From Escherichia coli (GTDB lineage Bacteria; Pseudomonadota; Gammaproteobacteria; Enterobacterales; Enterobacteriaceae): a DNA stretch of 64,000 nt. The stretch lies in the NCBI RefSeq assembly GCF_017348835.2, contig NZ_CP071375.1. One strand, written 5' to 3'. The notes under the pieces were generated by a model. The model made no database searches and was not told where the DNA came from. It saw nothing but the letters and a program-made list of their open reading frames with translations. Each line of letters opens with the position of its first letter. Position 1 is the stretch's first letter. The position numbers and the translations under genes are program-made. This document shows positions 1,199 through 24,748 of this stretch, piece by piece.

Positions 1199-1311
1199 TT
1201 ATCATCATTCTTATTACCCATTTTTAATGAATTAAAGGGCTTTTAATACACCGCAGCAATAACAGGTTGAGTTATCTCAACACAAAGTAATAACCGTTAA
1301 GGGTGTAGCCT

Positions 1312-1407
1312 ATGATCAACACAAATATGAAATATTGGTCCTGGATGGGCGCGTTTTCTCTGTCGATGCTCTTCTGGGCCGAACTCCTCTGGATCATTAC
1401 TCACTGA
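1312..1407 (+). CDS. candidate small hydrophobic protein (31 aa, MINTNMKYWSWMGAFSLSMLFWAELLWIITH); possibly a ymi-family small protein
   Basis: ATG with AAGGG upstream; single predicted TM-like segment; followed 7 nt later by an intrinsic terminator; not in ORF track (below length cutoff). Confidence 0.4.
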   Translation: MINTNMKYWSWMGAFSLSMLFWAELLWIITH

Positions 1408-1413
1408 TCCCTG

Positions 1414-1434
1414 ACCCCGCTTCGGCGGGGTTTT
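1414..1434 (+). terminator. rho-independent terminator (ACCCCGC-TTCG-GCGGGGT + TTTT)
   Basis: GC-rich 7-bp stem, tetraloop, U-tract; sits between yciX/small ORF and acnA promoter. Confidence 0.55.
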
Positions 1435-1570
1435 CATTTGCTTTGCCACAAGCTTTCTCCTCTTTTATCAATTTGGGTTGTTATCAAATCGTTACGAGAT
1501 GTTTGTGTTATCTTTAATATTCACCCTGAAGAGAATCAGGGCTTCGCAACCCTGTCATTAAGGAGGAGCT

Positions 1571-10348: not shown

Positions 10349-10495
10349 CAAGGACATCCTTATAGCAAAAGGGGGAAAATGAATAATGCAAAAATTGCCG
10401 CTAAAAGAGAAGTGTTTAACAGCAACGGCTAATTATCATCCGGGAATACGATATATAATGACGGAATATAGCGCTAAGTATATATATTCATCTAC

Positions 10496-12481
10496 TTATG
10501 CGCGCTTCAGATAGCGTTTATACCAGCGTTCGAAGGCGACGGCGGGCATCGGTTTGGCAAACAAAAATCCTTGCCGCTCATTGATCCCATTCTTGGTTAA
10601 AAAAGCATCTTCCTTTGCACTCTCTACACCTTCGGCGATCACCTGAAGATTCAATGCCTGGGCCACAGCGACGATTGCCCGAACCAGTGACTGCGAGACA
10701 GGTTGTTTGTGAATATCTCGAACAAAAACCTGGTCAAGTTTAATCGCATCGATCGGAAAGCGCGCCAGTTGCGAAAGTGAAGAGTAGCCGGTACCAAAAT
10801 CATCCAGATGCACTTGCGCACCTAATTGGCTAAATTGTTGAATAACAGACAGTGCCAGCACATCATTCTCAATCAGGCAGCTCTCCGTCAGTTCAACATC
10901 AATAGGGCAGTATTCAAAATTGAGTTCCTGGAGAACCTGTTTCAGGGAGGTGAAAATGGTTTGATCTGCGAGCTGACGTGCAGAAATATTTACCGCCACT
11001 CGCAGGTTAATACCTTTATCCCGCCACTTTGCCACCTGGCGTACGACATCGAGAATCACCCAACGGCCTAAAGGCACAATTAGCCCTGACTCTTCGGCGT
11101 AGGAAATGAAGTCCAACGGTGGAATCAACCCACGTTCAGGTGACTGCCAACGTACTAGTGCTTCCAGACTGCGCACTTCGCCACGCCAGGTGATTTTCGG
11201 TTGATAGTGAATAACCAACTGATCGTTTTCCAATGCTTTACGCAAGTTGGTATCCAGCCAGAGATATTCAAATACCCGCTGATTCATTTCTGGAGTAAAA
11301 ACGCAAAATTGTCCTCGTCCGCCTTCCTTCGCTGTGTACATTGCTGTGTCGGCGTGACGAATAATAGCCGCGCTGTCCGAACCATGTTCGGGAGAGAGTG
11401 AAATACCCACTGAACAGCTGGTATAAACTTCAATTAAACCAATACGAAAGGGGAGGCGTAAGCGGGTCAAAATTCGTGATGCCATTGCTTCCAGCGCGCT
11501 TTGTGAGGTATTGGATGCGAGTACCAGAAACTCATCGCCACCCGGACGCGCCAACACCTGGTCATGTTCGAGACAGCTTAAAATGGCCAATGACACGTCG
11601 CGTAATAACTGGTCACCAAATAAATGCCCATAGGCGTCGTTGACCTTTTTAAAATTATCCAAATCAAGATACACAACCCCAACTTTATTGTTATCTGCAT
11701 GATTAATAGCGTGATCGATTAACTCCTGCATTGCGTTACGATTCGGCAGTCCGGTGATACTGTCGGTATTTGCCAGAATACGCAGTCGCTCCTGAGCGCG
11801 GCGCTCTTCGGTAATGTCGGTGCCGGAACAGATTAAAAAAATCTCGTTTTTGCCACTGCCGCTGTGGACAAATTTATTGCGAAACAGAAACAGCCGCTGG
11901 CCTTTACGTGTTGGTATCCACAGTTCGACTTCATATGCATTGCCGCTTCGAAAAAATACACGGTTATTGCGCCTGGATGCCGCAGCTTCACGACGGCTCA
12001 TAAACAGTTTAAACACGCTTTGCCCAATGACGTCGTGTTCTTTCAACCCTGTGTAATCTTCACATAACCGATTGAAGCGCTGGATATTCCCCCGGCTGTC
12101 GAGAATGACTATTGCGGAATGTGCTTCAGAAACTACCTGCTCAGCAAAGGAAAGCCCGTGTGATAAATCACGAGCAACTGCCGGTGTGTCATGCCATGCA
12201 GACGCGTTGCCAGCCCATTCCCGTTTATTGATTTTTCGTCCTACCAGATGCACAGAAAGATCGCTCTCATCGACGGTCAGACTCATCATCAGGCTGGAGG
12301 TGATGACCGTCATTTCCCTGATGCGAGCAGCCTGTTCGGCAGATAACTGCAACGTACGTTCAGGTTCTGTGGTTTCGGTGGTAGAAAAGCGCAAAACATC
12401 GCTGCTTTCCGTCAACCGCCAGTATGGATTGTGCGATCCGAGAAAGTTGTACAACGTTGTGGACTCCCTAACGGTTTTCAT
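10496..12481 (-). CDS. pdeR: c-di-GMP phosphodiesterase PdeR (Gmr/YciR), PAS-GGDEF-EAL (661 aa)
   Basis: GGDEF motif (RPGGDEFLVL) and EAL motif (SLEALVRW) both present. Confidence 0.93.
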   Translation of the reverse strand: MKTVRESTTLYNFLGSHNPYWRLTESSDVLRFSTTETTEPERTLQLSAEQAARIREMTVITSSLMMSLTVDESDLSVHLVGRKINKREWAGNASAWHDTPAVARDLSHGLSFAEQVVSEAHSAIVILDSRGNIQRFNRLCEDYTGLKEHDVIGQSVFKLFMSRREAAASRRNNRVFFRSGNAYEVELWIPTRKGQRLFLFRNKFVHSGSGKNEIFLICSGTDITEERRAQERLRILANTDSITGLPNRNAMQELIDHAINHADNNKVGVVYLDLDNFKKVNDAYGHLFGDQLLRDVSLAILSCLEHDQVLARPGGDEFLVLASNTSQSALEAMASRILTRLRLPFRIGLIEVYTSCSVGISLSPEHGSDSAAIIRHADTAMYTAKEGGRGQFCVFTPEMNQRVFEYLWLDTNLRKALENDQLVIHYQPKITWRGEVRSLEALVRWQSPERGLIPPLDFISYAEESGLIVPLGRWVILDVVRQVAKWRDKGINLRVAVNISARQLADQTIFTSLKQVLQELNFEYCPIDVELTESCLIENDVLALSVIQQFSQLGAQVHLDDFGTGYSSLSQLARFPIDAIKLDQVFVRDIHKQPVSQSLVRAIVAVAQALNLQVIAEGVESAKEDAFLTKNGINERQGFLFAKPMPAVAFERWYKRYLKRA

Positions 12482-12681
12482 GATGCATATCCTCCGGTTA
12501 ACTGCGGAGTCCGCGGTTAAATAAAAGGAACAACATGACTTACATGAAATTAACGGCGGCTAAACGCATTGTTTTTTTTATATATTTATTTGTAATCCAG
12601 TTTTGGAAAAACGCCAGTTTTCAAACGAAAGTCAGTTAAAAAATCTGCCTGGATATAACGAAGGTAGAGCGGGGAAATAAA

Positions 12682-12707
12682 CGGCCCATCCATGAGGAAT
12701 GGGCCGT
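12682..12707 (-). terminator. stem-loop immediately downstream of rnb stop (CGGCCCAT...ATGGGCCG)
   Basis: 8-bp inverted repeat with 10-nt loop, about 10 nt after rnb stop on the minus strand. Confidence 0.4.
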
Positions 12708-17255: not shown

Positions 17256-17822
17256 ATGACCAGCAAGCTGGAGATACGCCACAAACAGCGTCAGGATGAA
17301 ATCATTAACGCCGCCCGTCGGTGTTTTCGTCGCTGCGGGTTTCATGCCGCCAGTATGTCGCAAATTGCCAGCGAAGCTCAGCTTAGCGTGGGTCAGATAT
17401 ATCGTTACTTCGCCAACAAAGACGCCATTATTGAAGAGATGGTTCGCCGTATCATCGACTTTCGTATTGCCCAAATGGACATTGACGCGCGTACCGATCA
17501 CTTCCCGGAAGTCCTTGCCTTGCGTAAATCCTTAAATGAGGACGACGACGCGCTGATGCTGGAAGTGGCTGCAGAAGCCACACGCAACCCGCGGGTTATG
17601 GCAATGCTTGAAGAAGCTGACGCCAGAATGTTCGCTAACGGTTGTGCACATATGAAAAGAATGCATCCCCATCTTAGCGACGAGCACATTCGTTGCTGCG
17701 TTGAAGTGTTTGCTACCATGATGGAAGGTACGGTTTATCGTCGTTTAACACCGCAAAAAAGCGATCCACAACATCTGCAGGAATTATATCAGGATATTGT
17801 TAGTATGTTGATAAATAAATAA
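17256..17822 (+). CDS. TetR/AcrR-family transcriptional regulator (188 aa from MTSK start; ORF track starts at 17157)
   Basis: N-terminal TetR HTH (SMSQIASEAQLSVGQIYRYFANKDAI); AGGAG RBS 8 nt upstream of 17256. Confidence 0.85.
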   Translation: MTSKLEIRHKQRQDEIINAARRCFRRCGFHAASMSQIASEAQLSVGQIYRYFANKDAIIEEMVRRIIDFRIAQMDIDARTDHFPEVLALRKSLNEDDDALMLEVAAEATRNPRVMAMLEEADARMFANGCAHMKRMHPHLSDEHIRCCVEVFATMMEGTVYRRLTPQKSDPQHLQELYQDIVSMLINK

Positions 17823-17842
17823 GAACAGAATTAACCAATAGC

Positions 17843-17866
17843 GGGGGATATTAATCCCCCTTATTT
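17843..17866 (+). terminator. stem-loop after TetR gene (GGGGGAT-ATTA-ATCCCCC + TTATTT)
   Basis: 7-bp GC-rich inverted repeat followed by T-rich run, 20 nt after TetR stop. Confidence 0.45.
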
Positions 17867-17923
17867 CATTGCGAAATTCATTTCGCGATGCGGGTTCGTT
17901 ATAACTGAATATCCCTGACATAT

Positions 17924-17960
17924 CCTCATTAATTTTAATGAGGAGGGTATTTCTCACCCT
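17924..17960. promoter_or_regulatory. two adjacent inverted repeats (CCTCATTAA-TT-TTAATGAGG; AGGGT-N7-ACCCT) directly upstream of the efflux operon RBS; candidate operator or promoter
   Basis: 9-bp perfect palindrome plus a second 5-bp inverted repeat within 50 nt of the MFP start. Confidence 0.35.
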
Positions 17961-17970
17961 GGAGAAAATA

Positions 17971-19092
17971 ATGAAGTATATAGCAACATCTGTAGTGGCA
18001 ATGCTGCTCTTATCTGGTTGTGATAATACGCAAAGTAACAATTCATCCCCGTCAGAAACAGAAGTCGGCGTTGTTACAGTCAAATCTCAACCGGTCTCGG
18101 TAGTCAGTGAATTAACCGGACGCACCAGTGCTGCGCTCAGTGCCGAAGTACGTCCGCAGGTTGGGGGAATTATCCAGAAACGCTTATTTAAGGAAGGTGA
18201 TCTGGTCAAGGCTGGACAGCCGCTCTACCAGATTGATGCGGCCAGTTATCAGGCTGCATGGAATGAAGCTCGGGCAGCATTACAACAAGCACAGGCACTG
18301 GTAAAAGCCGATTGCCAGAAAGCGCAGCGTTATGCCCGACTGGTGAAAGAGAACGGTGTTTCACAACAGGATGCTGATGATGCTCAGTCTACCTGTGCAC
18401 AAGATAAAGCCAGTGTAGAGGCGAAAAAAGCCGCACTGGAAACTGCGCGCATTAATCTTGACTGGACCACGGTAACCGCACCGATTTCAGGGCGCATTGG
18501 CATTTCGTCGGTAACCCCTGGCGCACTGGTGACCGCGTCGCAAGATACAGCGTTAACGACTATTCGTGGTCTGGATACAATGTATGTCGACCTCACTCGC
18601 TCCAGTGTCGATTTATTACGTCTGCGTAAACAGTCACTGGCGACCAACAGTGACACCATGAGCGTCTCACTTATTCTGGAAGATGGCACAACCTACAGCG
18701 AAAAAGGGCGTCTGGAACTCACCGAAGTCGCTGTAGATGAGTCTACCGGTTCGGTGACATTACGGGCGATTTTCCCCAATCCACAACAGCAGTTATTACC
18801 GGGAATGTTTGTTCGCGCTCGTGTCGATGAAGGCGTGATGGAAGACGCTATTCTCGCGCCGCAACAGGGCGTCACGCGCGATGCTAAAGGCAATGCAACT
18901 GCGCTGGTGGTGAATAAAGACAATAAAGTAGAGCAGCGAACGCTCGAAACGGGAGAAACATATGGTGATAAATGGCTGGTGCTAAACGGCCTGCACAACG
19001 GCGACCGACTGATTGTTGAAGGTTCTGCAAAAGTCACTTCAGGGCAGACGGTCAAGGCTGTTGAAGTTCAGGCTAATGGAGGCAACGCCTGA
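17971..19092 (+). CDS. RND efflux periplasmic adaptor (membrane fusion lipoprotein), AcrA/MexA-like (373 aa from MKYIATS start)
   Basis: lipoprotein signal with lipobox LLSGC; coiled-coil and beta-barrel MFP architecture; GGAG RBS. Confidence 0.9.
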   Translation: MKYIATSVVAMLLLSGCDNTQSNNSSPSETEVGVVTVKSQPVSVVSELTGRTSAALSAEVRPQVGGIIQKRLFKEGDLVKAGQPLYQIDAASYQAAWNEARAALQQAQALVKADCQKAQRYARLVKENGVSQQDADDAQSTCAQDKASVEAKKAALETARINLDWTTVTAPISGRIGISSVTPGALVTASQDTALTTIRGLDTMYVDLTRSSVDLLRLRKQSLATNSDTMSVSLILEDGTTYSEKGRLELTEVAVDESTGSVTLRAIFPNPQQQLLPGMFVRARVDEGVMEDAILAPQQGVTRDAKGNATALVVNKDNKVEQRTLETGETYGDKWLVLNGLHNGDRLIVEGSAKVTSGQTVKAVEVQANGGNA

Positions 19093-22000
19093 TGTTTTCG
19101 CGCTTTTTTGTTCGCCGCCCGGTCTTTGCCTGGGTTATCGCCATTTTGATTATGTTGGCGGGGATTCTGGCTATTCGCACATTGCCCGTCGCGCAATATC
19201 CTGACGTTGCGCCACCGACCATTAAAATTTCAGCCACTTATACTGGTGCTTCTGCCGAAACGCTGGAGAACAGCGTGACTCAGGTTATCGAGCAACAACT
19301 CACTGGGCTTGATAATTTACTCTATTTCAGCTCAACCAGCAGCTCTGATGGTTCGGTCAGTATTAATGTGACCTTTGAACAAGGTACCGATCCAGATACT
19401 GCACAGGTTCAGGTGCAGAATAAAATTCAGCAGGCCGAGTCGCGCCTACCCAGCGAAGTGCAGCAAACGGGTGTTACGGTGGAGAAATCACAAAGCAACT
19501 TTTTGCTGATTGCTGCCGTGTATGACACCACTGACAAAGCCTCCAGTTCGGATATCGCCGACTGGTTGGTTAGTAACGTTCAGGACCCGCTGGCGCGTGT
19601 TGAAGGTGTGGGGAGTCTGCAAGTCTTTGGCGCGGAATACGCTATGCGCATCTGGCTTGACCCGGCCAAACTGGCGTCTTATTCGCTAATGCCTTCAGAC
19701 GTGCAAAGTGCTATTGAAGCGCAAAACGTGCAGGTTACTGCCGGGAAAATAGGGGCATTGCCTTCACCGAATACTCAGCAACTGACCGCAACGGTACGTG
19801 CGCAGTCTCGCTTGCAGACGGTGGATCAGTTCAAAAATATTATCGTGAAAAGCCAGTCAGACGGCGCAGTTGTTCGTATAAAAGATGTGGCTCGTGTTGA
19901 GATGGGCAGTGAAGATTATACCGCTATCGGCAAACTTAACGGTCACCCGTCTGCCGGGGTTGCTGTAATGCTTTCGCCCGGTGCGAATGCGCTGAATACG
20001 GCGACGCTGGTCAAGGATAAGATTGCCGAATTCCAGCGGAACATGCCGCAGGGATACGACATCGCTTACCCGAAAGACAGCACTGAATTTATTAAAATCT
20101 CTGTAGAGGACGTAATTCAGACGCTGTTTGAAGCCATCGTATTGGTGGTTTGCGTGATGTATTTATTCCTGCAAAACCTGCGTGCCACACTGATTCCGGC
20201 GTTAGCTGTCCCCGTCGTTTTGCTGGGCACATTCGGCGTTCTTGCGTTGTTTGGCTATTCGATTAATACCCTGACGTTGTTTGCAATGGTGCTGGCGATC
20301 GGCTTGCTGGTGGACGATGCCATTGTGGTAGTGGAGAACGTCGAACGCATTATGCGTGACGAAGGGTTGCCCGCGCGTGAAGCCACGGAAAAATCAATGG
20401 GCGAGATTTCTGGCGCACTGGTTGCCATTGCGCTGGTGTTGTCAGCCGTATTCCTGCCTATGGCCTTCTTTGGGGGATCTACGGGGGTAATTTATCGTCA
20501 GTTTTCGATAACCATTATCTCCGCAATGCTGCTTTCCGTGGTGGTGGCATTGACCTTGACTCCCGCCCTGTGCGGTTCCGTCCTCCAGCATGTTCCGCCA
20601 CATAAAAAAGGCTTTTTCGGCGCATTTAACCGCTTTTACCGCCGTACTGAAGATAAATATCAGCGAGGCGTAATTTATGTCCTGCGCCGTGCTGCTCGAA
20701 CGATGGGGCTTTATCTCGTACTGGGTGGTGGAATGGCCCTGATGATGTGGAAACTGCCGGGCAGTTTCTTACCCACTGAAGACCAGGGCGAAATCATGGT
20801 GCAGTACACGCTGCCGGCCGGGGCGACCGCTGCCCGTACAGCAGAAGTGAATCGCCAGATTGTTGACTGGTTCCTGATTAACGAGAAAGCAAATACCGAT
20901 GTCATTTTTACCGTTGATGGTTTCAGTTTTAGCGGCAGCGGACAGAACACCGGGATGGCGTTTGTTTCGTTGAAAAACTGGTCTCAACGTAAAGGGGCAG
21001 AAAACACCGCCCAGGCTATCGCCCTACGGGCAACCAAAGAGCTGGGCACAATTCGTGATGCCACGGTATTTGCGATGACGCCGCCAGCCGTTGATGGGCT
21101 GGGGCAAAGCAATGGTTTTACGTTTGAATTGTTAGCTAACGGTGGAACCGATCGCGAAACACTACTGCAAATGCGTAATCAGTTGATAGAAAAAGCGAAT
21201 CAAAGTCCGGAGTTACATTCTGTTCGTGCCAATGATTTGCCACAAATGCCGCAATTGCAGGTAGATATTGATAGTAATAAAGCGGTGTCATTAGGGTTGA
21301 GTTTGAATGATGTCACCGACACCCTGTCCAGTGCGTGGGGCGGTACTTATGTGAATGACTTTATTGACCGTGGTCGTGTGAAAAAAGTCTACATTCAGGG
21401 CGACAGTGAATTTCGTTCCGCGCCGTCAGACTTAGGTAAATGGTTTGTGCGCGGTAGCGATAACGCCATGACACCATTCTCTGCTTTTGCGACCACCCGC
21501 TGGCTGTATGGACCGGAAAGACTGGTGCGCTACAACGGTTCTGCAGCCTATGAAATTCAGGGGGAAAATGCGACTGGCTTTAGTTCCGGCGATGCAATGA
21601 CAAAAATGGAGGAACTGGCAAACAGTCTTCCTGCGGGAACAACCTGGGCCTGGAGTGGTTTGTCATTGCAGGAGAAACTGGCCAGCGGTCAGGCATTGAG
21701 TCTGTATGCAGTTTCTATTCTGGTGGTTTTCCTCTGCCTTGCAGCACTGTACGAAAGCTGGTCAGTCCCGTTCTCGGTCATTCTGGTGATCCCTCTGGGG
21801 CTTCTTGGCGCGGCGCTGGCGGCCTGGATGCGTGATTTAAACAACGATGTTTACTTCCAGGTGGCGCTATTAACCACTATCGGCTTGTCGTCGAAAAACG
21901 CCATTCTGATTGTGGAATTTGCTGAAGCGGCGGTTGCAGAGGGCTATTCCTTGAGTCGTGCGGCATTACGCGCGGCGCAGACTCGTTTACGCCCAATCAT

Positions 22001-22199
22001 TATGACCTCGCTGGCGTTTATTGCGGGGGTAATGCCGCTGGCGATAGCAACCGGCGCAGGGGCGAACAGCCGCATCGCCATTGGTACGGGCATTATTGGC
22101 GGTACGCTGACCGCTACGTTGCTGGCTATTTTCTTTGTTCCTCTGTTTTTTGTACTGGTGAAACGTTTGTTTGCCGGTAAACCGCGCCGTCAGGAGTAA
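19092..22199 (+). CDS. RND (HAE1 family) inner-membrane multidrug efflux pump, AcrB/MexB-like (1035 aa)
   Basis: 12-TM RND architecture, characteristic N-terminus (MFSRFFVRRPVFAWVIAILIML); start overlaps MFP stop (ATGA). Confidence 0.93.
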   Translation: MFSRFFVRRPVFAWVIAILIMLAGILAIRTLPVAQYPDVAPPTIKISATYTGASAETLENSVTQVIEQQLTGLDNLLYFSSTSSSDGSVSINVTFEQGTDPDTAQVQVQNKIQQAESRLPSEVQQTGVTVEKSQSNFLLIAAVYDTTDKASSSDIADWLVSNVQDPLARVEGVGSLQVFGAEYAMRIWLDPAKLASYSLMPSDVQSAIEAQNVQVTAGKIGALPSPNTQQLTATVRAQSRLQTVDQFKNIIVKSQSDGAVVRIKDVARVEMGSEDYTAIGKLNGHPSAGVAVMLSPGANALNTATLVKDKIAEFQRNMPQGYDIAYPKDSTEFIKISVEDVIQTLFEAIVLVVCVMYLFLQNLRATLIPALAVPVVLLGTFGVLALFGYSINTLTLFAMVLAIGLLVDDAIVVVENVERIMRDEGLPAREATEKSMGEISGALVAIALVLSAVFLPMAFFGGSTGVIYRQFSITIISAMLLSVVVALTLTPALCGSVLQHVPPHKKGFFGAFNRFYRRTEDKYQRGVIYVLRRAARTMGLYLVLGGGMALMMWKLPGSFLPTEDQGEIMVQYTLPAGATAARTAEVNRQIVDWFLINEKANTDVIFTVDGFSFSGSGQNTGMAFVSLKNWSQRKGAENTAQAIALRATKELGTIRDATVFAMTPPAVDGLGQSNGFTFELLANGGTDRETLLQMRNQLIEKANQSPELHSVRANDLPQMPQLQVDIDSNKAVSLGLSLNDVTDTLSSAWGGTYVNDFIDRGRVKKVYIQGDSEFRSAPSDLGKWFVRGSDNAMTPFSAFATTRWLYGPERLVRYNGSAAYEIQGENATGFSSGDAMTKMEELANSLPAGTTWAWSGLSLQEKLASGQALSLYAVSILVVFLCLAALYESWSVPFSVILVIPLGLLGAALAAWMRDLNNDVYFQVALLTTIGLSSKNAILIVEFAEAAVAEGYSLSRAALRAAQTRLRPIIMTSLAFIAGVMPLAIATGAGANSRIAIGTGIIGGTLTATLLAIFFVPLFFVLVKRLFAGKPRRQE

Positions 22200-22202
22200 G
22201 TT

Positions 22203-23576
22203 ATGTTGCGTCGTTCTCTTATTTTTCTGGTGCTGTTGAGTGCGGGATGTGTCTCGCTCGATCCCCACTACAGCACGCCTGAATCCCCAATCCCGGCGAC
22301 CTTGCCGGGAGCACAGGGCCAGGGAAAGGCAATCAGCCATGACTGGCAGCAGGTGATCCACGATCCCCGATTGCAGCAAGTGGTGACTATTGCACTGAAC
22401 AGTAACCGCGATGTGCAAAAAGCGATTGCTGATATTGACTCAGCACGGGCGCTCTATGGGCAAACTAATGCGTCGTTATTCCCGACGGTGAATGCGGCCT
22501 TAAGTTCAACCCGCAGTCGTTCGCTGGCGAATGGTACGGAAACCACTGCCGAGGCTGACGGCACGGTGTCCAGTTTTACGTTAGATCTGTTTGGTCGTAA
22601 TCAGAGTTTATCTCGGGCGGCGCGAGAAACCTGGCTTGCCAGTGAATTTACAGCCCAGAACACCCGTTTAACGCTGATTGCTGAAATCAGCACCGCCTGG
22701 CTGACACTGGCGGCCGATAACAGCAACCTGGCCCTGGCAAAAGAAACGATGACCAGTGCAGAAAACTCATTGAAAATTATCCAGCGCCAGCAACAGGTTG
22801 GCACGGCGGCAGCGACAGATGTCAGTGAGGCGATGAGTGTTTATCAGCAAGCGCGCGCCAGCGTTGCCAGCTATCAGACACAAGTGATGCAGGATAAAAA
22901 TGCGCTGAACTTACTGGCAGGTACAACGCTTGAGGAAAATTTGCTACCGGGAACACTGGAAAGCCTGCCGGAACAGATGATAAGTCTGGTTCCTGCGGGA
23001 GTGTCATCTGACGTTCTGCTGCGTCGCCCGGATATCCAGGAAGCGGAACATAATTTGAAGAGCGCCAATGCCGATATTGGCGCGGCGCGGGCTAACTTTT
23101 TCCCGACGATTTCGCTGACTGCCAGCGCTGGTGTTGGCAGTGACGCATTGTCGTCGTTGTTCAGCCACGGAATGCAGATCTGGTCATTTACGCCATCGGT
23201 CACATTACCGCTGTTCACTGGCGGAAGTAATCTGGCGCAGCTTCGTTACGCAGAAGCACAAAAGCGTGGACTCATTGCCACCTATGAAAAAACCGTTCAG
23301 AGCGCATTTAAAGATGTCGCTAACGCACTGGCGCGGCGGACCACGCTTGAAGAGCAACTGGATGCACAGCGCCAGTATGTTAAAGCTGAGCAACAAACGG
23401 TCGATGTTGGCTTGCGTCGCTATCAGACGGGTGTTGGTGATTACCTGACCGTGTTGACGGCGCAGCGCAGCTTGTGGAGCGCACAGCAGGAGCTGCTGGC
23501 ACTGCAACTGACTGATTTTACAAACCGAATCACGCTCTGGCAGTCGCTGGGCGGCGGCATGTCATCACTCAAGTAA
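22203..23576 (+). CDS. outer-membrane efflux lipoprotein, OprM/NodT-family OMF (457 aa)
   Basis: lipobox LSAGC; OMF family repeats; 3 nt after RND stop. Confidence 0.9.
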   Translation: MLRRSLIFLVLLSAGCVSLDPHYSTPESPIPATLPGAQGQGKAISHDWQQVIHDPRLQQVVTIALNSNRDVQKAIADIDSARALYGQTNASLFPTVNAALSSTRSRSLANGTETTAEADGTVSSFTLDLFGRNQSLSRAARETWLASEFTAQNTRLTLIAEISTAWLTLAADNSNLALAKETMTSAENSLKIIQRQQQVGTAAATDVSEAMSVYQQARASVASYQTQVMQDKNALNLLAGTTLEENLLPGTLESLPEQMISLVPAGVSSDVLLRRPDIQEAEHNLKSANADIGAARANFFPTISLTASAGVGSDALSSLFSHGMQIWSFTPSVTLPLFTGGSNLAQLRYAEAQKRGLIATYEKTVQSAFKDVANALARRTTLEEQLDAQRQYVKAEQQTVDVGLRRYQTGVGDYLTVLTAQRSLWSAQQELLALQLTDFTNRITLWQSLGGGMSSLK

Positions 23577-23584
23577 GGAATAAT

Positions 23585-24748
23585 ATGGCTAGAGTCTCTC
23601 TTTCATGGGCATTGATTCTTGGTCTTTTAGCCGGTATCGGCCCGATGTGTACCGATCTTTATTTGCCGGCTTTGCCGGAGATGTCTGAGCAACTGGCGGC
23701 AACCACGACCATAACGCAATTAACGCTGACTGCATCACTGATCGGTCTTGGCGTCGGACAACTGTTATTTGGCCCTCTGAGCGACAAAATAGGGCGTAAA
23801 CGTCCGTTAATCTTGTCGTTGCTATTGTTTATTGTTTCTTCCATTTTGTGCGCGACAACGAACAATATTTACTGGCTGGTGATCTGGCGTTTTATTCAAG
23901 GGATCGCGGGGGCGGGTGGTTCGGTGCTCTCTCGTTCTATTGCTCGTGACAAATATCAGGGAGTAACGTTGACCCAGTTTTTTGCGCTGTTAATGACGGT
24001 GAATGGCCTGGCACCGGTGTTGTCGCCAGTGCTGGGCGGGTACATTGTTAGCACTTTTGACTGGCGCACTTTATTCTGGGTAATGGCTGAAATTAGCACC
24101 GTATTGTTGCTGGGCTGCGTGTTATTTATTAATGAGACCTTGCCAGAAAATAAAAGGGGCTCATCATTGCTATTAACCGGACGAAGCGTGGTGCAGAACC
24201 GCCGTTTTATGCGCTTTTGCCTGATTCAAAGTTTTATGCTGGCAGGTTTGTTTGCGTATATCGGCTCTTCGTCGTTCGTGTTGCAGAAGGAATTTGGCTT
24301 TAGTCCAATGCAATTTAGCCTGGTGTTTGGCCTTAACGGCATCGGACTTATCATTGCTTCATGGATCTTTTCGCGTCTGGCGCGACGGATTAATGCGATG
24401 ACATTGTTGCGAGGTGGCCTGATAGCGGCAATTTTGTGTGCATTGCTCACGGTCTTATGCGCATGGACACAATTGCCCATTCCGGCACTGGTGGCATTAT
24501 TTTTCACTATTGCATTTTGTAGCGGCATCGGCACTGTTGGCGGGGCAGAGGCTATGAGTGCAGTAGGGACGCAGGAATCTGGAACGGCGTCTGCGTTGAT
24601 GGGGATGAGCATGTTTGTCTTCGGCGGTATAGCCGCGCCATTGTCGGGATTTGGCGGAGAAACACTGTTAAAAATGAGTCTGGCAATTACGGTGTGTTAT
24701 ACACTGGCATTCCTGGTTGCTCTCACCAGAATCGACAATCAAAAGTAA
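23585..24748 (+). CDS. MFS transporter, Bcr/CflA drug-resistance subfamily (387 aa)
   Basis: 12-TM MFS with motif GPLSDKIGRKRP; AAGGA RBS; 8 nt after OMF stop. Confidence 0.88.
   Translation: MARVSLSWALILGLLAGIGPMCTDLYLPALPEMSEQLAATTTITQLTLTASLIGLGVGQLLFGPLSDKIGRKRPLILSLLLFIVSSILCATTNNIYWLVIWRFIQGIAGAGGSVLSRSIARDKYQGVTLTQFFALLMTVNGLAPVLSPVLGGYIVSTFDWRTLFWVMAEISTVLLLGCVLFINETLPENKRGSSLLLTGRSVVQNRRFMRFCLIQSFMLAGLFAYIGSSSFVLQKEFGFSPMQFSLVFGLNGIGLIIASWIFSRLARRINAMTLLRGGLIAAILCALLTVLCAWTQLPIPALVALFFTIAFCSGIGTVGGAEAMSAVGTQESGTASALMGMSMFVFGGIAAPLSGFGGETLLKMSLAITVCYTLAFLVALTRIDNQK

Follow-up and report, generated by a model that had tools for sequence, protein, structure and literature searches.

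The 661-residue open reading frame analysed here lies in a 64-kb stretch of Escherichia coli DNA (the window) and is, with very high probability, a natural allele of pdeR that acts as the published trigger phosphodiesterase, its mechanism being assigned by homology. The intact GGDEF and EAL motifs that the first-pass annotation had singled out in this protein are real, ordinary and already known.

Gene identity and domain architecture

The gene and the signals next to it are the following:

10496..12481, minus strand: pdeR (yciR, gmr) coding sequence, 661 aa; open reading frame with an ATG start, in agreement with the RefSeq annotation
12490..12495, minus strand: Shine-Dalgarno-like GGAGGA, 8 nt 5' of the pdeR ATG, from reading of the sequence
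12681..12707, minus strand: putative terminator-like hairpin after rnb and upstream of pdeR, from a consensus scan (11-pair stem, then a T-run)

The identification as PdeR was borne out by the RefSeq annotation, by the NCBIfam equivalog NF007474 ('cyclic di-GMP phosphodiesterase') and by a match of 654 of 661 amino acids to K-12 PdeR (YciR, Gmr; b1285). Against NF007474, which has a curated equivalog cut-off of 782 bits, the window protein scored 1335.9 bits, with residues 1-660 aligned over 663 profile positions. RefSeq also labels 99.95%-identical DNA as pdeR, and the gene, annotated by RefSeq as 'cyclic di-GMP phosphodiesterase', was found in 5422 of 5426 complete E. coli genomes. The order of the neighbouring genes, yciT-yciZ-ymiD / pdeR / ymiB-rnb, is the same in the window and in K-12.

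Around pdeR, ymiD (10386-10514, plus strand) is convergent with the gene and overlaps its last 19 nt, and a ymiB-like open reading frame of 34 codons (12535-12639, plus strand) lies in the pdeR-rnb intergenic region. Further away, the sole Rfam match in the window was the enterobacterial sRNA STnc180 (1239-1441, plus strand, 200 bits). It lies over ymiC, which is annotated as a gene for a small membrane protein and is found upstream of acnA. Between fabI and sapF, positions 17256-24748 hold a TetR regulator, an RND efflux system (adaptor, permease and outer-membrane factor) and an MFS transporter, whereas in K-12 a single small gene, ycjD, occupies the interval. This region is a strain-variable efflux island.

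The first-pass annotation had described a PAS-GGDEF-EAL protein, and all three domains were matched by Pfam. Together with an additional N-terminal domain, the protein is divided as follows:

12197..12481, minus strand: aa 1-95, N-terminal domain with homology to the FI (RpfF-interaction) domain of RpfR (phmmer)
11807..12142, minus strand: PAS domain, aa 114-225, an orthologue of the RpfR PAS domain that binds a fatty acid (BDSF) (Pfam PAS_9/PAS)
11312..11773, minus strand: GGDEF domain, aa 237-390 (Pfam PF00990, E 1.9e-46)
10550..11248, minus strand: EAL domain, aa 412-644 (Pfam PF00563, E 6.3e-67)

Residues 4-95 matched the FI domain of Cronobacter RpfR (PDB 6dga) in phmmer with an E value of 4.1e-20, and the PAS domain matched the BDSF-binding PAS of the same protein (PDB 6dgg) with an E value of 1.9e-53 over 110 residues. 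The domain order FI-PAS-GGDEF-EAL is thus that of the RpfR family. This four-domain plan is common to PdeR and to the BDSF/DSF receptor RpfR of Burkholderia cenocepacia and Cronobacter turicensis, and it has already been given for the E. coli homologue 'Gmr' (PMC6361424). RpfR and PdeR are also alike in being chiefly phosphodiesterases with a constrained cyclase activity. However, the outputs of E. coli PdeR are DgcM and MlrA, unlike those of RpfR. The DSF synthase RpfF is absent from E. coli (PMC6361424), and the annotation of the 64-kb window contains no rpfF-like gene, either beside pdeR or elsewhere. As the domain matches are full-length and fall in a conserved orthologue, the finding of GGDEF and EAL domains is not due to chance.

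[quoted passage not shown]

11528..11542, minus strand: GGDEF signature motif (A-site), aa 314-318, from direct translation
11558..11569, minus strand: position of the inhibitory I-site, reading EHDQ, aa 305-308, from alignment columns
11156..11164, minus strand: EAL signature motif, aa 440-442, from direct translation
10778..10804, minus strand: EAL loop 6, DDFGTGYSS, aa 560-568, with the metal-binding Asp pair and the dimerisation/substrate loop, from direct translation

Translation confirmed that both motifs are intact, at residues 314-318 and 440-442. The first-pass annotation had also pointed to the essential residues outside the motifs, and we searched both domains by alignment for such residues that had been lost. 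None was lost among those that could be checked; all checkable catalytic and nucleotide-binding residues outside the motifs are present, and the objection that a site might be broken elsewhere therefore falls away.

For the GGDEF domain we used as references PleD, the E. coli cyclases DgcZ and DgcM (from the K-12 genome) and the bifunctional MorA. We checked the sequence of PleD against PDB chains 1w25, 2wb4 and 9g86, and the literature numbering is that of chains 2wb4/9g85. R248, D273, D275, K278, N281, D290, R312, G314, G315, E317, F318 and K385 of PdeR were invariant in comparison to all four references, and R389 agreed with PleD, DgcZ and DgcM. In the alignment, R300, D327, K332, N335 and D344 of PleD correspond to R248, D273, K278, N281 and D290 of PdeR, the PleD motif GGEEF (368-372) corresponds to GGDEF (314-318), and PleD K442 and R446 correspond to K385 and R389. 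The PleD residues aligned here are reportedly those that bind metal, guanine and phosphate in the PleD structures (Chan 2004; Wassmann 2007). The GTP-binding and catalytic residues of PdeR are thereby identical to those of the dedicated cyclases PleD, DgcZ and DgcM. All three of these lack an EAL domain, whereas PdeR has one and its cyclase output is negligible.

PdeR also differs from these cyclases at the I-site. The columns five residues before the GGDEF motif read RxxD in PleD (R359/D362) and DgcM (R323/D326) and RxxE in DgcZ, and the RxxD I-site is absent from PdeR, which has EHDQ with E305 and Q308 at the corresponding positions. The absence of an I-site from YciR was also noted by Lindenberg 2013 (PMC3715855). 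The sole R..D match in PdeR, RHAD at 375, was ruled out as an I-site, as it aligns with KRAD of PleD in the C-terminal (last) helix. Because the I-site columns read EHDQ and not RxxD, binding of c-di-GMP by the GGDEF domain is unlikely, judged from the alignment.

MorA of P. aeruginosa (PDB 4rnh), a bifunctional GGDEF-EAL protein, was the top solved-structure match over the GGDEF and EAL domains of PdeR (E 1e-101). Both proteins have the GGDEF, EAL, ELTES, DDFGTGYSS and EGVES motifs, and both lack the RxxD I-site. However, MorA is a paralogue of PdeR and not an orthologue; it is anchored in the membrane, has multiple PAS domains and shows a measurable cyclase activity.

The EAL domain was aligned with those of MorA, PdeL and PdeH. 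E440, N498, E530, E533, D560, D561, K581, E617, E620 and Q637 were invariant in comparison to these references, and R444 is also present. Loop 6 is identical to that of MorA and invariant in our orthologue alignment of 119 sequences, which consists of the window protein and homologues of at least about 83% identity from E. coli, E. marmotae, E. fergusonii and Citrobacter. E617 and E620 of PdeR correspond to E352 and E355 of RocR (PMC6029578), and the mutations E530A, K581A and E617A have been tested in YciR itself (PMC5635171).

The allele and its relatives

The locus, the domain order, the motifs and all catalytic residues are the same in K-12 PdeR and in the window allele. The two genes differ at 40 nucleotides (98.0% nucleotide identity), which give 32 synonymous and seven non-synonymous codon differences. 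The seven substitutions relative to K-12 are D41E, C192R, D253E, A361S, T371A, A512S and E541V, and none of them is on a catalytic position. Commensal and uropathogenic strains have been reported to carry D41E, C192R, D253E, A361S and T371A as natural variants of YciR (PMC5635171 with its supplement); the table of natural YciR variants of that paper lacks A512S and E541V. S512 occurred in one and V541 in three of the 119 aligned sequences. The allele is rare, with two undescribed conservative substitutions in the EAL domain (A512S and E541V), and this is its sole unusual point.

Most of the orthologues have R192 and E253, so that K-12 carries the derived form at both positions. The Ser at 361 is also present in PleD and DgcZ, and positions 371, 512 and 541 vary freely among the orthologues. 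In overexpression experiments in one strain background, T371A introduced singly into K-12-identical YciR strongly reduced the down-regulation of the rdar morphotype, and A361S alone, also in K-12-identical YciR and in the same kind of assay, reduced it at 37 C (PMC5635171). Since both substitutions altered the output of YciR, the activity of the window allele may differ quantitatively from that of K-12, and natural alleles have been reported to tune biofilm behaviour (PMC5635171). Judged by its residues, the allele is nevertheless probably like the K-12 protein in its biochemistry.

We considered the allele as new, but this was ruled out by the identical protein, which is already present in public databases (e.g. 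EFB2356174.1) on 33 contigs. Over its 64 kb the window differs by one base from the genome of E. coli PE164, isolated from a pig in China (NZ_CP114128.1, 2312843-2376842). This base, at position 12407, lies in pdeR codon 25 in the FI domain, which is GAA (Glu) here, encodes Glu also in K-12, and is GAT (Asp) in PE164. The identity of '100.0%' to PE164 given by megablast is therefore a rounded value, and the two proteins differ as E25 and D25.

The catalytic positions listed above for both domains were invariant or nearly so among the 119 sequences. Both motifs were kept in all 14 sampled members of an E. coli cluster of 12,072 members. However, one of the 14 (P0275, on 6 contigs) has an intact GGDEF motif together with D290V, so that the guanine-binding Asp is gone. 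An intact motif is therefore no guarantee that the whole GGDEF site is intact in a given E. coli; such decay occurs in nature, though not in the window allele. The emphasis that the first-pass annotation had placed on this particular allele was not supported, as its substitutions are off the catalytic residues and the intact pair of motifs is usual in E. coli and in closely related species.

The wider FI-PAS-GGDEF-EAL family was searched with the FI and PAS region and sampled as 50%-identity representatives. Three remote relatives (P0130, P0131 and P0146) have kept GGDEF and lost the EAL site, and four others (P0158, P0163, P0184 and P0238) have kept EAL and lost the GGDEF site, a pattern suggesting that members of the RpfR/PdeR family have specialised repeatedly. 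As remote relatives have lost one or the other, whereas the enterobacterial clade keeps both, the retention of both motifs is not automatic, and it points to selection on the GGDEF site in this clade. Purifying selection on the complete cyclase active site is strong, although the protein functions as a phosphodiesterase and inhibitor.

Probable role of the GGDEF domain in a trigger phosphodiesterase

K-12 YciR hydrolyses c-di-GMP to pGpG through its EAL motif, and the AAL mutation abolishes this activity (PMC3715855, Lindenberg et al. 2013). Its GGDEF domain binds GTP, and its binding of c-di-GMP depends on the EAL and not on the GGDEF domain (PMC3715855). When YciR was given GTP, c-di-GMP was undetected and traces of pGpG were found, in line with a very weak cyclase that is masked by the phosphodiesterase (PMC3715855). 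As stated by the first-pass annotation, PdeR is a published trigger phosphodiesterase (Hengge 2016) in curli control: in K-12 it inhibits DgcM and MlrA by binding them directly, and this inhibition is relieved by the binding and turnover of c-di-GMP (PMC3715855, PMC5052742). Sarenko et al. 2017 (PMC5635695) showed that the GGDEF domain of PdeR is a main contact surface for DgcM, DgcE, DgcN and DgcO. In that paper from the Hengge laboratory the protein is denoted PAS-GGDEF(deg)-EAL despite the intact motif, so that classification in the field is not uniform.

Based on 99% identity to K-12 PdeR, the window allele probably behaves as a trigger phosphodiesterase as well. When c-di-GMP made by DgcE rises, it would be bound and hydrolysed by the EAL domain, and this would release DgcM and MlrA, so that csgD is switched on. 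The GGDEF domain with its complete active site would serve, as in K-12, mainly as a GTP-binding module and as a docking surface for the GGDEF domains of the partner cyclases. The cyclase activity of PdeR itself would be very weak, at most cryptic, and masked by the adjacent EAL domain, and without an I-site the GGDEF domain would not be a c-di-GMP receptor. The complete set of catalytic residues alone leaves the weak cyclase activity unexplained. The first-pass annotation had proposed cyclase activity, GTP binding or c-di-GMP binding by the GGDEF domain as potential activities. GTP binding and a residual cyclase activity stand, as published for K-12, whereas c-di-GMP binding is not supported, given the missing I-site and the EAL-dependent binding in K-12.

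Caulobacter PdeA has a degenerate GGDEF domain that senses GTP. It is possible, although we would not expect it, that the GGDEF domain of PdeR is likewise catalytically irrelevant and is kept only for the docking of partner cyclases and as an allosteric or structural module that depends on GTP. The mapping of GTP binding to this domain (PMC3715855), its role as the main contact with the partner cyclases (PMC3715855, PMC5635695) and the 'deg' notation (PMC5635695) are all consistent with such a module. This reading overlaps with the trigger mechanism preferred here, but it denies any cyclase role. Neither pure GTP binding nor docking would need K278 or the acidic residues for metal binding and catalysis (D273, D316/E317), yet these residues are invariant in the 119 orthologues and are lost only in some remote family members, and traces of the cyclase product have been observed (PMC3715855). 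At the other extreme, PdeR could be truly bifunctional, as described for Burkholderia RpfR, with a signal sensed by the PAS domain (e.g. a fatty acid) turning the GGDEF domain into an effective diguanylate cyclase. In its full catalytic set PdeR agrees with PleD, DgcZ and DgcM, which are active cyclases, and with the bifunctional MorA; its catalytic residues are strictly conserved among orthologues, and K-12 YciR makes traces of pGpG from GTP (PMC3715855). RpfR has been reported as bifunctional and its cyclase is hyperactivated by Y355D (PMC7474642); the equivalents of RpfR residues by numbering offset, Y353 and R375, are present in the window protein. However, about 45% of the close orthologues have Q or H at position 353, the c-di-GMP product was undetected with K-12 YciR (PMC3715855), and cellular c-di-GMP was unchanged on deletion of pdeR (PMC5635695). 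The phenotypes of the null and AAL mutants also fit the inhibitor/phosphodiesterase model (PMC3715855, PMC5052742), and we regard an effective cyclase in PdeR as unlikely.

The window allele could also be a functionally impaired, weakened trigger on account of its substitutions, in which case the retained motifs would overstate its activity. The weakened rdar down-regulation by overexpressed K-12-type YciR with T371A (strongly) or A361S (at 37 C) argues in this direction (PMC5635171), as does the rarity of S512 and V541 among the aligned sequences. However, K-12 is the odd one out at 192 and 253, where the window has the majority, ancestral residues; S361 is shared with PleD and DgcZ, and positions 371, 512 and 541 are freely variable in the reference enzymes as well as in the orthologues. 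T37I, the most determinative substitution of PMC5635171, is absent from the window protein, and the presence of the allele on 33 contigs indicates that it persists in nature. Impairment is therefore, in our judgement, quite improbable. These three alternatives differ only in biochemical detail, and sequence analysis cannot separate them.

A more speculative idea, which we hold to be very improbable, is that E. coli PdeR is an 'orphan' RpfR. Its conserved FI and PAS domains would still respond to a fatty-acid signal (DSF or C12:0, from the host or from neighbours), and depending on the ligand state the fully equipped GGDEF domain would be either a silent docking module with GTP bound or a real cyclase. 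The rare set of A512S, E541V and T371A in this pig-associated allele would then shift the balance.

For the allele in the window, the trigger phosphodiesterase mechanism of K-12 PdeR is the preferred reading. The meaning of the intact GGDEF motif, with GTP binding, a cryptic cyclase and no I-site, was set for K-12 in 2013, so the finding raises no new question and has little importance beyond correct annotation. As both active sites are kept, the allele can be treated as a predicted functional trigger phosphodiesterase, in a protein that is the decision point for the production of the curli and cellulose matrix in E. coli.
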